Source of the DNA: a virus | Virus record (IMG/VR): IMGVR_UViG_3300009149_000012 | Span: 84,882-148,881 of that record | Reading direction: 5' to 3' (one strand) | Length of the DNA stretch: 64,000 nt | Shown: positions 10,209 to 63,995 of the stretch, piece after piece | Layout: each line of letters opens with the position of its first letter | Numbering within the stretch: the first letter of the stretch is position 1 | Made by a program: the position numbers and the translations under genes | The notes under the pieces: generated by a model | Seen by the model: only the letters and a program-made list of their open reading frames with translations | What the model was told of the DNA's origin: nothing | Database searches by the model: none

Positions 10209-11419
10209 TTGTGTACACCGTCCTTCGTGCTGTCGGCTTCGACCTTGCCTGCGTCGTCCAAGAGGTACTCATCGATGGTCCGGAACAGGGCGGTCTCGCG
10301 CCCATCCTTCGTCACCAAATACACCCGAAGCTCAACTTGGTGGCTGCGCATGCTGTCGACGAGCTTCATGAAGTGCTCGAAATGCACATTTGCAGCGAAA
10401 CCACCCACATGACCCCCGCCTTCGCCGACGTCGGTGTTGTGGTGAGTCAGTTCAACCGGAAGGTGGCTGGTACCCTTGCTGGAGCTTGCCGCCGCATGGA
10501 ACACGAGCGTCGATTTATCGAGATCGAACGTCACACGCATCTTGGTGGACTTGCCCAGGTACGGACGAACCAGGTTTAGACAGCCGAGAAGCGCTGCCCG
10601 GTCGACCATCAAAACGTACTGGTCGTACTTGCGGTGATAGTAGGTGAACTTCGGGAAAACCTCTGCCAGATGCGTCCAGCCAAGGAAGGCGCCCGTCTCG
10701 TCCTCCAAGAACGAATAGCCCTTCCCGATCCGGAGCTTGACAGTCTTGCCGCACTTACCGAGGAACGAGATGATGCTGGGCAAGTGCTCCGAAAACAGAG
10801 CCATGTGCTTGCCCTTGAAGATATCCGTCTTGAAGTAGAAGCTGCGGGTGCCGTCCGACGTCTGAAGGAAGCCGTCGCCCTTGGCGAAATCCTTCACGTT
10901 CTTGTCGAACATCTGAGCCGTGTTCCAGGTCGACACCTCACCCGTGTACTTGGCAAGGTACGGACGCGACCCCGACAGCGCCTCGACCAGGATGGCCGTG
11001 GGGAACTCCTGCACATCGGTCGCCGCAGCGTAGTCCTTGTCCCGGGTTGAGACCATCCGAGGATCGATCGTGGATGTCTCGGCGCTGCCATGGTCGCTGC
11101 TATGGGAGACCGTGTGGCCTTCCGCCTTCGCAACCACCTCGAAGCTCAAGATATCACCCGCATGCTGCAAGGACGCTGCGAGAGCCGCTGGGAAAGTGAA
11201 CGAACCTTCCCCGTCCTCTTTCTCCACATCCGACACCTTGAACGAGGCTCGTGCGACTCGCTGAACATCCGTGGAGTAGACTTCGCAAGTGTCGTCCTTG
11301 ACGTTGAACAGGTACGCAACCCCCTCCATGGAATCGCTACTCGTGATGGGGCTGGGTGTCACCACCCCCACCACAGCGGTCGCTGCCAACAGGTCGTTTT
11401 TGTGAACCTTGAACTTCAT
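10172..11419 (-). CDS. dnaN: DNA polymerase III beta sliding clamp-like protein
   Basis: MKFKVHKNDLL start, STD/SDG motifs, FPKF, 415 aa, context with clamp loader. Confidence 0.65.
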   Translation of the reverse strand: MKFKVHKNDLLAATAVVGVVTPSPITSSDSMEGVAYLFNVKDDTCEVYSTDVQRVARASFKVSDVEKEDGEGSFTFPAALAASLQHAGDILSFEVVAKAEGHTVSHSSDHGSAETSTIDPRMVSTRDKDYAAATDVQEFPTAILVEALSGSRPYLAKYTGEVSTWNTAQMFDKNVKDFAKGDGFLQTSDGTRSFYFKTDIFKGKHMALFSEHLPSIISFLGKCGKTVKLRIGKGYSFLEDETGAFLGWTHLAEVFPKFTYYHRKYDQYVLMVDRAALLGCLNLVRPYLGKSTKMRVTFDLDKSTLVFHAAASSSKGTSHLPVELTHHNTDVGEGGGHVGGFAANVHFEHFMKLVDSMRSHQVELRVYLVTKDGRETALFRTIDEYLLDDAGKVEADSTKDGVHKCVLTRYMPSYL

Positions 11420-34405: not shown

Positions 34406-34463
34406 GATAAGCCTACCGTTTCTTTTTCCGCATCATTCAGCCTTGTTTACACCGTGGAATTAG

Positions 34464-34820
34464 TGGAGTCGCCGGGAATCGAACCCGGGTCCGAAAAACA
34501 TCGTTTCAATCCGTCTACGTGCGTAGCCCTTCTACCCTCGGGCGGGGTTTGCCGATCTTCCAACCGACATGGGGATTTTCATTGTCTTGATCGGGGGTTA
34601 TCGACACGTCCCTCAATTTTGCCCCGAAGCATCCTGTGTGGGTTGACGTCGCCGGGGTACTCAGGACCCTTCCCGTTTGACGGACACTACGCTGCTGCGA
34701 GCATCAGGTTACCATTATCGTTGGCAATTGACGTTCCACCTGTTTGATCATGGCTGTTCAGGTGGCTCAGCCAGCACGCGAGATCGAACCTCCATCCTCC
34801 GTCGAAACCAAGTCGACCCC
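34464..34820 (-). ncRNA. ssrA: tmRNA, tag ANDNGNLMLAAA
   Basis: GGGGTCGAC..GGTTTCGAC 5' end, G3:U70, T-arm; tag ORF 34687-34725. Confidence 0.95.
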
Positions 34821-44473: not shown

Positions 44474-44505
44474 TGGAATCACGGGGATTCGAACCCCCGT
44501 GGCTC
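44474..44505 (-). pseudogene. tRNA 3' fragment / minihelix (T-arm plus acceptor strand)
   Basis: GGGG-TTCGAAT-CCCC-GTGATTCC-A. Confidence 0.5.
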
Positions 44506-44578: not shown

Positions 44579-44621
44579 AATCGAAGCCAATCACCGTTCG
44601 GCCGAACGGTGACCAGCCTCT

Positions 44622-44676
44622 AAGTTCCGCTGAGGATTTGAACCTCTTGACGCGTCTGCCTGCCAGGCACGGAACC
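44622..44676 (-). ncRNA. Mini tRNA-like RNA lacking anticodon loop (E)
   Basis: Acceptor GGTTCCG/CGGAACT, D-like arm, 3-bp stub, T-arm. Confidence 0.55.
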
Positions 44677-44867: not shown

Positions 44868-45323
44868 CTAGTAATCGTAATCGGCACGGGGACTTGAATC
44901 CGTCATGCCGTACCCTCGAAGCCACCTTCGGTTCTGCTCCGTGTGGGTGAACTGGGAAAAGGTTTCCCATGCGTCCGTTCGGCCTTCGCCCGGCTTTCGC
45001 TTGGGTAGGGGCTTGGCTTCCCCTGTGAGGTGGTCGTACTGCGTGGGGCCCGGGATGTGGTCCTCCGTGATCGAGAGAAGCTTCGTGGGAGGAAGCCCCG
45101 GGAAGATCGGATGCTCGTAGATACGCATGCCGTAGCCACCGAACATCTTGCTCGGGAACATCTGCGTCAGGAGTCGATGCGTTTTGATGACCTTGAGCAC
45201 CCGGTCGAAGTCAAGCTGGGGAAGCTCCCCCTCGGGTTTCCAATCAAGCGAACAGTTGTCGCCATGCTTGGGCCAAAGTCGAGCATGAAGCTCCCGCATC
45301 CATTCTAAGTCAGTTTCTTCCAT
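44868..45323 (-). CDS. Hypothetical protein
   Basis: 151-aa ORF; ATG overlaps upstream CCA. Confidence 0.65.
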   Translation of the reverse strand: MEETDLEWMRELHARLWPKHGDNCSLDWKPEGELPQLDFDRVLKVIKTHRLLTQMFPSKMFGGYGMRIYEHPIFPGLPPTKLLSITEDHIPGPTQYDHLTGEAKPLPKRKPGEGRTDAWETFSQFTHTEQNRRWLRGYGMTDSSPRADYDY

Positions 45324-45449
45324 GGTGGAGTCGGCCGGAATCGAACCGGCACCTGGGAGTTAGCGCCCCCTGCTCTACCTGCACCAGGGCCCCCGGGGAA
45401 CAGCGCTATTCTTGCCGGGTAGCATCCGATGAACTTGAGCTACAACCCC
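45323..45449 (-). ncRNA. Ala-type tRNA-like RNA with about 54-nt D-loop insertion (H)
   Basis: G3:U70, A73, CCA, intact D- and T-stems. Confidence 0.75.
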
Positions 45450-45452
45450 TTC

Positions 45453-45603
45453 TGGTGGAGTAGACGGGATTCGAACCCGCCGTGAAGCTACGGTATGCCT
45501 AAAGGCTGTTCTCCAGCCATCCAGAGCCACTGGGTCGCGAACACCAGCTTGATCCCTGGTCCTAGTTTTCGTTTGCAGCAAGGCGACCATGCCTTCCTAC
45601 CCC
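45453..45603 (-). ncRNA. Ala-type tRNA-like RNA with about 83-nt anticodon-loop insertion (I)
   Basis: GGGGTAG/CTACTCC, A73, CCA, T-arm. Confidence 0.75.
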
Positions 45604-45617
45604 ATGTTGTGTTCCTT

Positions 45618-45644
45618 CTAAGGGGTCTACACCGACAGGATCAA
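45618..45644 (-). promoter_or_regulatory. TTGATY-N16-CTTAG promoter motif
   Basis: Repeat motif, upstream of elements I and H. Confidence 0.7.
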
Positions 45645-45654
45645 CCACAATCGG

Positions 45655-46371: not shown

Positions 46372-46452
46372 CGGAGAGTGTAGGATTCGAACCCGGCCTT
46401 TCGGCACCCGGTTTTCAAGACCGGTGTGGGGACCTTTCCCACCTCACTCTCC
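46372..46452 (-). tRNA. tRNA-Ser(TGA), 8/4-type
   Basis: 8-bp acceptor, V-arm. Confidence 0.8.
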
Positions 46453-48221: not shown

Positions 48222-48227
48222 AATTTG

Positions 48228-48464
48228 TCGGTCTGACGGGACTCGAACCCGCATAACCACTCCGTACCTGTTAGGAAAACGCGCTTCCCTACAGAACCCT
48301 CTCGAACCCTGTCCGGTGCATCCGCAAACCCGGCACACGCTTGCTGGTTCTCCCTACCCGAGCATCACCCTGAAGGGTTTCCCCAGTTCACGTCGGAGCG
48401 TCAACCTTCCGATTGACCACGTTAACCGTTTTTCGTGGTGCGTACCCATTTTCGCCACAGACCG
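48228..48464 (-). ncRNA. tRNA-shell RNA with about 170-nt insertion in anticodon arm (O)
   Basis: CGGTCTG/CAGACCG, D-arm, CCAC/GTGG, T-arm, A73. Confidence 0.75.
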
Positions 48465-53153: not shown

Positions 53154-53238
53154 TGGGCCGTGAAGGAATCGAACCTCATAGTCATTAAGACGGGAGGGTT
53201 ACAACCTCCGGGCGGTCCCAGCCACCTATTCACGACCC
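53154..53238 (-). tRNA. tRNA-Tyr(GTA)
   Basis: V-arm; first gene of array. Confidence 0.85.
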
Positions 53239-63671: not shown

Positions 63672-63995
63672 TCAACCGAGTTTTTGCTTTAGCTGTTCAG
63701 GAGGGTATGCCCACACGCCGGGGGAGACAGCCTTGACGGAATGACCCGGTACATAGTCACTTCGGATTCGGGTCGGAACCGCTACGAGCCACCGCTGAAC
63801 GGGGATCGCCACATGCTTTCGAAAGTGCCTGACCGCCGCATCCGGCCCCTGACCGCCCTTCTCGAATCCGATGACCCTTCCTTTCGGGCCTTCCACCAAG
63901 ATCGTCCAGAAGGTCCCTCCTACCCGCTTGATGCCCCGCTTCTCAGACAAGCCATGCAGGTAGAGGACGGCTTCCCACAGCCCGGTTTTGATCAA
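63672..63995 (-). CDS. Hypothetical protein, probably 5'-truncated by window edge
   Basis: Open frame to window end. Confidence 0.5.
   Translation of the reverse strand: MIKTGLWEAVLYLHGLSEKRGIKRVGGTFWTILVEGPKGRVIGFEKGGQGPDAAVRHFRKHVAIPVQRWLVAVPTRIRSDYVPGHSVKAVSPGVWAYPPEQLKQKLG

Follow-up and report, generated by a model that had tools for sequence, protein, structure and literature searches.

A family of tRNA-like phage RNAs carrying a conserved three-way junction in place of the anticodon loop

INTRODUCTION

RNA C and RNA D of phage T4 (species 1 and 2) are excised by the tRNA-processing machinery and have tRNA-like ends. They are small stable RNAs encoded in the tRNA cluster of the phage, and their roles are unknown (PMC3014915). 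In Lak megaphages, 'enigmatic' tRNA introns were reported that are conserved between cohorts, belong to no known class and remained unclassified with Rfam (Devoto et al. 2019, PMC6784885). A third type of RNA, found in phage DS6A, is a relic of transfer-messenger RNA (tmRNA) that consists of the tRNA-like domain only and may titrate SmpB (PMC4131195, PMC11915505). Here we describe a 151-nt tRNA-like element at 45453–45603 (minus strand) of the window, by which we mean the whole stretch that was analysed, namely the last 64 kb of the 148,881-bp IMG/VR virus record IMGVR_UViG_3300009149_000012 (G000). The element has the acceptor marks of tRNA-Ala, and in place of an anticodon loop it carries a module built as a three-way junction, which is conserved in otherwise unrelated phage contigs. 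It appears to be the first member to be characterised of a new family of phage RNAs on a tRNA scaffold, a family that is supported by covariation and, as far as we found, undescribed.

The T4 RNAs resemble the element in being small RNAs encoded in a phage tRNA cluster. However, T4, a cultured coliphage, is not reported to have the module, and blastn of deposited phage genomes found no family member (see below). The Lak introns and the element both concern oversized tRNA genes of very large uncultured phages with an insert in the anticodon region; when compared by description, the Lak genes were called as tRNAs with an anticodon after removal of the insert, whereas no such loop could be restored in the element. 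With tmRNA and the DS6A relic the element shares its alanine identity (G3:U70, A73), a T arm, the lack of an anticodon and a phage origin. Unlike them, it has a real D stem, a helix in the position of the anticodon stem (P0) and the conserved three-way junction, there is no conserved tag open reading frame (ORF), and a full tmRNA is encoded alongside. The T4 RNAs, the Lak introns and the DS6A relic are the nearest described cases and, as far as could be tested, none of them shares the module.

Structured RNA also replaces the anticodon loop in the engineered tRNA scaffold of Ponchon and co-workers, in which RNA placed in the anticodon stem is processed and stable in E. coli (PMC3753655). That scaffold is a laboratory design whereas the element belongs to a natural family, and the processing and stability of the engineered chimeras in bacteria support a scaffold logic for the element. 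The YrlA-type Y RNAs of bacteria and phages (RF02553) are likewise non-coding RNAs with a tRNA-mimicking domain. They end in a Ro-binding stem instead of an acceptor stem, which is a reverse topology. Identity with a Y RNA was rejected, as no Rfam match was obtained and no Ro60/TROVE gene was found in the five carrier records searched.

RESULTS

An alanine-type tRNA shell encloses 83 nt in place of the anticodon loop

The initial annotation of this stretch had described a tRNA shell with G3:U70, A73, CCA, D and T arms and an insert of about 83 nt, and all of these parts were found in the sequence. The parts of the element are as follows.

45453–45603, minus strand: whole tRNA-shell RNA, 151 nt; the part from the module to the 3' end (45453–45570) scores 120.4 bits with the family model R1 described below, by construction, because the element is one of its training sequences
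45597–45603, minus strand: acceptor stem, 5' strand GGGGUAG, with G3 of G3:U70; 7 of 7 positions pair with 45457–45463
45581–45594, minus strand: D arm AGGC-AUGGUC-GCCU, with a 4-bp stem and GG in the loop; the stem has 3–4 bp in other members
45575–45579, minus strand: P0, the analogue of the anticodon stem, 5' strand GCUGC; pairs with GUAGC at 45487–45491
45560–45574, minus strand: junction J1, AAAC-GAAAAC-UAGGA; GAAARC is common to all members (AAAAAC in L033)
45562–45576, minus strand: micro-ORF GCA AAC GAA AAC UAG (ANEN-stop), across the border of stem and insert; in this strain only
45521–45559, minus strand: variable hairpin P-a, CCAGGG...CUCUGG; the outer 4–6 bp are kept with compensatory changes
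45519–45520, minus strand: junction J2, AU; invariant in six members
45504–45518, minus strand: hairpin P-b, GGCUG-GAGAA-CAGCC; four different stems, with 5 of 5 pairs changed on both sides
45492–45503, minus strand: junction J3, UUUAGG-CAUACC; UUUAGG was fixed by the search patterns
45487–45491, minus strand: P0, 3' strand GUAGC; pairs with GCUGC
45464–45480, minus strand: T arm GCGGG-UUCGAAU-CCCGU; 3 of 5 pairs changed on both sides
45453–45463, minus strand: acceptor stem, 3' strand CUACUCC with U70, followed by A73 and CCA; A73 is present in six of six members

When compared with a canonical tRNA, the element has the acceptor, D and T arms of the cloverleaf, but where a 7-base anticodon loop with U33 and a readable anticodon would be, the P0 strands enclose exactly 83 nt. 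It was called neither by ARAGORN, with introns allowed or not, nor by the Rfam models of tRNA (RF00005) and tmRNA (RF00023). Inspection of the 149-kb record for repeats of the insert or antisense targets yielded only T-arm identities and chance 12–13-mers, and the insert was unique in the genome. The element was regarded as more than a chance assembly, because G3:U70 is restricted in the array and because the architecture recurs with compensatory changes in other phages.

The module recurs in other phage contigs

The search for relatives started from the ORF downstream of the element (44868–45323), which led to the 2.2-kb contig L010. The local order in the window is promoter, 151-nt element, a second tRNA-like element at 45323–45449 and then this ORF; the gene order of L010, counted from tRNA-Arg(CCU), is the same. 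Near the element the two phages are ∼90–95% identical in DNA, and the shell is kept in L010, but its 3' end is CCG instead of CCA. It was found that the central 63 nt of the two elements are identical, while ∼20 differences fall in the D loop, P0 and the junction segments. On the P0/J1 side, GCUGC-AAACGAAAACUAGGA in this phage stands against GCGAUC-UUGCGAAAACCGAUA in L010, and on the J3/P0 3' side CAUACC-GUAGC is changed to UAGACC-GUGGUC, so that the helix is restored with different bases. X4, a third variant, which was obtained from a salt-lake run, has GCGUGC-UUGCGAAAACCGAUA. That the 63-nt core stayed identical in close relatives while the flanking P0, J1 and J3 changed together argues for the module as the working part. 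From the contigs of four DNA sequencing runs, variants of the element were recovered and no joints.

With a 25-nt piece of the identical core, L023 and L024 were found in ENA metagenomes. A looser pattern (GAGAA-N5-TTTAGG-N14-28-T loop) applied to IMG/VR gave L028 on a 372-kb contig (G001), L029 on a 182-kb contig (G002) and L031/L033. The same architecture was present in all of these otherwise unrelated phage contigs (L010, L023/L024, L028, L029 and L033/L031); L023 has a GC content of 48% and essentially no protein-level similarity to this phage. The contig scans were pattern-based, and the patterns themselves prescribed GAGAA, UUUAGG and the T loop.

No family member was found in deposited phage genomes by blastn with four members as queries, or by pattern scans in one-per-species prokaryote genomes, where the GTDB genomes gave chance matches only. 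E. coli genomes returned only a chance 21-mer with blastn, and a scan for the T arm plus acceptor pattern gave only chance matches. One further pattern scan gave 44 loci, only two of which, both already known, were real. Relatives of the neighbour genes of L029 and L033 yielded no further strong members.

The helices of the module covary around a conserved core

The members share the order of acceptor, D arm, P0 (4–5 bp), J1 with GAAARC, P-a and AU in the 5' half, followed in the 3' half by P-b (5 bp, GAGAA loop), J3 with UUUAGG-NAGA, the 3' strand of P0, a short variable region, the T arm, the acceptor and A73. Each of the six helices is completely paired in every member, with differing sequences. 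In the six members P0 is GCUGC/GUAGC, GAUC/GGUC, GCAU/AUGC, CGUUC/GAACG, AGCGU/GCGUU and ACACU/AGUGU, and the stems of P-b are GGCUG/CAGCC, GGCCC/GGGCC, UCUUG/CAAGA and UGAUG/CAUCA. The interior of P-a (10–35 nt) is unrelated in sequence between lineages. In alignment A5, 100% of the cells were paired, and both sides had changed in 9 of the 12 pairs, among them the five pairs of P-b. The observed values were matched by none of 500 shuffles, and shifted registers fell to 31–54% paired.

Several of the shared features were found in L028, L029 and L033 although the pattern that retrieved these members did not demand them, namely GAAARC in J1, AU in J2, the pairing of P-b, P-a, P0 and G3:U70, the last apart from L033, which has U3-A70. 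Likewise, the positions of J3 after UUUAGG (A-G/U-A-like) were kept without being demanded by the search.

A homologue covariance model had been suggested in the initial annotation as a check on the element. Such a model, R1, which covers the module and the T arm, was built from six training sequences, this element among them, and its helices covary. R1 gave one match per record in the five carrier records (81–120 bits), and its next-best matches, which were ordinary tRNAs and other oversized shells of the window, reached ≤26 bits. Rfam at permissive thresholds (E ≤ 10 for the element, E ≤ 1 for a 9.3-kb stretch of the array) showed no ribozyme, intron, Y RNA or other family, and the family matched nothing in Rfam 15.

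P-b, which we take to resemble a GNRNA-type pentaloop hairpin like phage boxB, would suit a peptide or RNA receptor. P-b also has some likeness to the L11-binding hairpin of 23S rRNA, and J1/J3 to the ssrA tag of E. coli, but both were dropped as coincidences.

Alanine identity is kept in diverged shells

The G3:U70 pair has an established role in recognition by alanyl-tRNA synthetase (AlaRS). Among the ARAGORN calls of the window it was found only in the three tRNA-Ala genes and the neighbour 45323–45449. Four shells that diverged independently (this phage/L010, L023, L028 and L029) have G1-C72, G2-C71, G3:U70 and A73. Acceptor positions 4–7 differ with compensatory changes, while the three pairs from G1-C72 to G3:U70 are kept in five of the six members. 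The retention of the wobble pair through this divergence argues for selection, and points to recognition by AlaRS as its probable cause. CCA is encoded in this element, in L028 and in a truncated L031 copy, and the others end in CCG, CGA, UCA or CUA. Ordinary tRNA-Ala(UGC) genes are also present in three carriers, so the element is not needed for decoding alanine codons. These results supported the earlier view of the element as a non-decoding tRNA-like RNA of alanine identity with its own promoter.

A chargeable alanine acceptor could also act as a decoy or sponge that ties up host AlaRS, EF-Tu, SmpB or a defence nuclease directed at tRNAs. Selection on the AlaRS marks, for which the covarying positions 4–7 of the four diverged shells argue, would be expected of such an RNA, and a molecule consisting of the tRNA-like domain only, as phage DS6A has, strongly inhibits tmRNA (PMC4131195, PMC11915505). 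However, the shell alone would do for a decoy, yet the inserted module is the best-conserved part, and L033 has no G3:U70. The D stem and the P0 helix are unlike the tRNA-like domain of tmRNA, and in two carriers a phage tmRNA coexists, which a tmRNA inhibitor would counteract. Genes for SmpB and AlaRS, as well as for FemAB and Ro60/TROVE, were not found in the carrier records searched, which are incomplete (6–86%). A decoy was considered an unlikely explanation.

The tag-like micro-ORF is not conserved

The sequence GCA AAC GAA AAC TAG, which had been noticed across the stem/insert junction, was present at 45576–45562, with its first two bases inside the P0 helix. It had given rise to the idea of a mini-tmRNA, an alanylated RNA that would enter stalled ribosomes, resume translation on GCA AAC GAA AAC UAG and add an ANEN tag. 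The element does have G3:U70, A73 and CCA as in tmRNA, the ORF opens with GCA AAC as do many tags, and the permuted-tmRNA model of Rfam weakly aligned the T arm and the acceptor end (22.9 bits). But the alanine acceptor identity is shared with tRNA-Ala and hence is not discriminating, and the Rfam tmRNA model RF00023 gave 12.4 bits, for a T-arm piece only, compared with a gathering score of 47.

It was found that only this strain and near-identical copies carry the ORF, whereas L010, X4, L023, L028, L029 and L033 lack it. L010 and X4 have neither GCA AAC nor UAG. From member to member, the ORFs that start with Ala at the P0/J1 border are entirely different, and no comparable short one was found in the other members. 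J1 is CCGAUA in four variants, distant ones included (L010, X4, L023 and L033), and the UAG is part of the CUAGG variant of J1, which L028 has without such an ORF. Because conservation had been set beforehand as a criterion, the absence of the micro-ORF from the relatives refuted the mini-tmRNA. The structure is also at odds with it: a true D stem (3–4 bp) and P0 (4–5 bp), both covarying, occupy the place of SmpB on tmRNA, no pseudoknot and no resume-codon context were found in the element, and the supposed resume codon begins within a helix. Moreover, a full tmRNA is already present in this phage and in G001. The proposal of a mini rescue RNA that adds a tag was rejected on the non-conserved micro-ORF and the failing RF00023 score, and we regard it as highly improbable. 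The suspicion voiced together with it, that ANEN-stop may be due to chance, was borne out. As judged from the aligned sequences, the micro-ORF is a strain-specific accident with no tagging.

An intron or cassette scar as a possible but improbable origin of the insert

The module might be a small intron or a mobile insertion in a tRNA-Ala gene that is removed, or the scar of a cassette. This would be consistent with its occurrence in shells of different identity (Ala-type in four lineages, another type in L033) and with the relatives of the L033 phage, in which the shell and its place are kept while the interiors differ. L010 and X4 have C-U-U-G-C-G, which resembles the UGC anticodon of tRNA-Ala, directly after P0, and conserved unexplained tRNA introns are present in Lak megaphages (PMC6784885). 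However, there is no anticodon at a fixed place by P0 (AAAC, UUGC, GCA, GAGC, GU, AAGUA), and ARAGORN gave no call when introns were permitted. The insert was artificially excised to leave each of eight possible 7-nt loops; six of these were not called and two gave only calls in a shifted register (default settings). A canonical 7-nt anticodon loop is neither present nor restorable by excision, which favours a non-decoding RNA. No match to a group I intron or a self-cleaving ribozyme was found in Rfam at E ≤ 10, and known group I introns are far larger than the 83 nt of the insert. An RtcB gene was not found in the record of this phage, the only record searched for RtcB and for the CCA-adding enzyme, which was also not found. 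The insert is single in the genome, and normal tRNA-Ala(UGC) genes coexist with it. An interrupted tRNA was judged rather improbable. The presence of the module in shells of two identities, and in G001 at a distance of ∼95 kb from the tRNA array, fits a cargo that moves between tRNA chassis, or a replacement of shells by recombination within tRNA arrays.

The promoter and the downstream unit

The element had been described as lying right after a TTGATC-N16-CTTAG promoter, and the evidence turned out to be stronger than that description. The motif is GTTGATC-N15-CCTTAGA (or CCTTACA), and at least nine copies of it are present in the record, mostly 6–7 nt ahead of an ATG. Examples of copies on the minus strand are at window positions 63676, 61615, 59476, 51819, 45645 and 31213. 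The boxes in front of the element are as follows.

45639–45645, minus strand: promoter box GTTGATC, a recurrent motif of this phage; kept in L010
45617–45623, minus strand: promoter box CCTTAGA, a recurrent motif of this phage; 13 nt upstream of G1

The distance of 6–7 nt to ATG suggests leaderless mRNAs, and the 13-nt spacing in front of the element may point to a short 5' leader that would be cut off by RNase P. Retention of the consensus promoter in L010 favours the element being a separately transcribed gene.

The element might instead be processing punctuation or a decaying tRNA, in which only the shell matters, as a signal for cleavage by RNase P/RNase Z that would release the RNAs and the ORF downstream of it, while the interior drifts. 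The layout of promoter, element, 45323–45449 and an ORF whose ATG is fused to the CCA of that neighbour would fit this, as would the promoters of this phage, which mostly directly precede ATG codons, and the freely varying interiors of the L033-lineage shells. Drift is, however, difficult to reconcile with a module that is conserved in sequence and structure between phages sharing no other similarity. The differences between close relatives are strongly non-uniform, with the 63-nt core identical where its flanks diverged. Little probability was assigned to punctuation or decay.

Genomic surroundings of the element and its relatives

The completeness of the record was estimated by CheckV to be ∼31%, which implies that the source is a very large phage. 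Samples containing the phage come from the subsurface, marine sediment and salt lakes. Its GC content is ∼57%, and its other genes include RecA, GroEL, an NAD-dependent ligase, ribonucleotide reductase and a RecD2-like helicase. ARAGORN called 44 tRNAs on the minus strand, in an array spanning 31.3–53.2 kb of the window. A bona fide tmRNA is located inside the same array at 34461–34820 (113 bits with Rfam, tag ANDNGNLMLAAA), 11 kb from the element. The ORFs flanking the element matched no Pfam or PHROG family.

The second tRNA-like RNA at 45323–45449 (minus strand) begins 3 nt past the element and also has alanine identity, with the acceptor GGGGUUG/CGACUCC including G3:U70, A73 and CCA. Its D loop contains a long hairpin, and its 'anticodon' loop, CGCUAA, has 6 nt. 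This RNA is kept in L010 and does not belong to the R1 family; the ATG of the ORF 44868–45323 overlaps its CCA. Further oversized or truncated tRNA shells were observed on the minus strand at 48225–48464 (240 nt, CGGUCUG/CAGACCG) and 44620–44675 (a 56-nt mini-helix), as well as T-arm motifs that belong to no ARAGORN tRNA at 44485, 47414, 50560 and 53165. R1 matched none of these oversized or truncated shells or stray T arms of the window. Two tRNA-like genes with long variable arms, at 46373–46452 and 53156–53237 (both minus strand), were overlooked by ARAGORN. The former is above the Rfam gathering score for tRNA (30.3 bits), and the two have below-threshold tRNA-Sec scores of 37 and 32 bits, respectively. 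ARAGORN called no tRNA-Tyr in the array, and one or the other of these genes may be a candidate for it.

In G001, the family member is ∼95 kb away from the tRNA array. At L092:1555–1920 this contig has a tmRNA with the tag ANDNSAMPVAA, followed by an array of ∼46 tRNA genes. With an order at the tmRNA end that resembles that of the window (tmRNA, then Leu-CAA) and with all three tRNA-Ala genes, G001 appears to be distantly related to this phage. In L023, a second tRNA-like RNA (10380–10560, minus strand; GCCUCCU.../AGGGGGU) was observed just downstream of the member; it has a hairpin in the D region and no anticodon arm, which echoes the pairing of two elements in the window. G002 has a tRNA with a CUA anticodon (L094:14819–14895), labelled 'Pyl' by ARAGORN, which is a candidate amber suppressor and hints at recoding of TAG in that phage.

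DISCUSSION

The best explanation of these observations, which we hold to be fairly probable, is a separately promoted gene for a non-decoding tRNA-like RNA of ∼151 nt, with the alanine-type shell as scaffold and the conserved three-way-junction module as the working part. As deduced from the sequences, the RNA would be transcribed from the phage promoter and then excised in the manner of a tRNA, with RNase P making the 5' end and the tRNA 3'-end enzymes the other. Host AlaRS would probably charge the RNA or at least bind it. The RNA cannot decode. The shell would serve as a scaffold for processing, for stability and for access to tRNA-handling proteins, and the module may provide the functional surface that binds a putative protein or RNA partner.

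Several points weigh against this explanation. The family is known from only six lineages, and part of the apparent invariance of GAGAA and UUUAGG stems from ascertainment in the member search. L033 lacks G3:U70 (A1-U72, U3-A70), which means that not every member can depend on alanylation. In L101 (1892–1988) and L102 (1825–1990), from relatives of the L033 phage, the same shell is found with quite different interiors; these elements have 97 and 166 nt, and the shell lies just upstream of a conserved 148-aa ORF. The interiors of L033-type shells are exchanged over evolutionary time, and in these relatives the shell rather than the module could be what counts locally. No partner protein or neighbour gene was found to recur beside the element across the carrier records, and among the sequencing runs listed for this stretch there was no RNA run.

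A more far-reaching alternative, to which we give a low probability, is an alanine-charged adaptor RNA without an anticodon, in which the three-way junction replaces codon reading, either by an internal GAA/UUU minihelix that mimics the codon–anticodon pair or by docking to a partner. If this were true, alanine or the RNA itself would be handed to ribosomes with no need of mRNA or SmpB, or to an acceptor other than the ribosome. It would then be a protein-independent functional relative of tmRNA-SmpB, or a new viral use of aminoacyl-tRNA mimicry.

For the scaffold-and-module RNA that we favour, strong covariation, the invariant core, the lack of a match in Rfam or in deposited phages, and the alanine marks in most members make it a concrete and testable candidate. 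With it, the 'tRNA scaffold' of the laboratory would have a counterpart in nature. For those who annotate genomes, the locus is a warning that a micro-ORF resembling a tag can arise by accident within such an RNA. The tRNA arrays of giant phages are usually read as codon-usage helpers; the present family shows that they are also home to structured RNAs that are conserved, do not decode and use a tRNA as their chassis, which may be a new way for phages to interfere with or exploit host AlaRS, EF-Tu, RNase P and defence nucleases.

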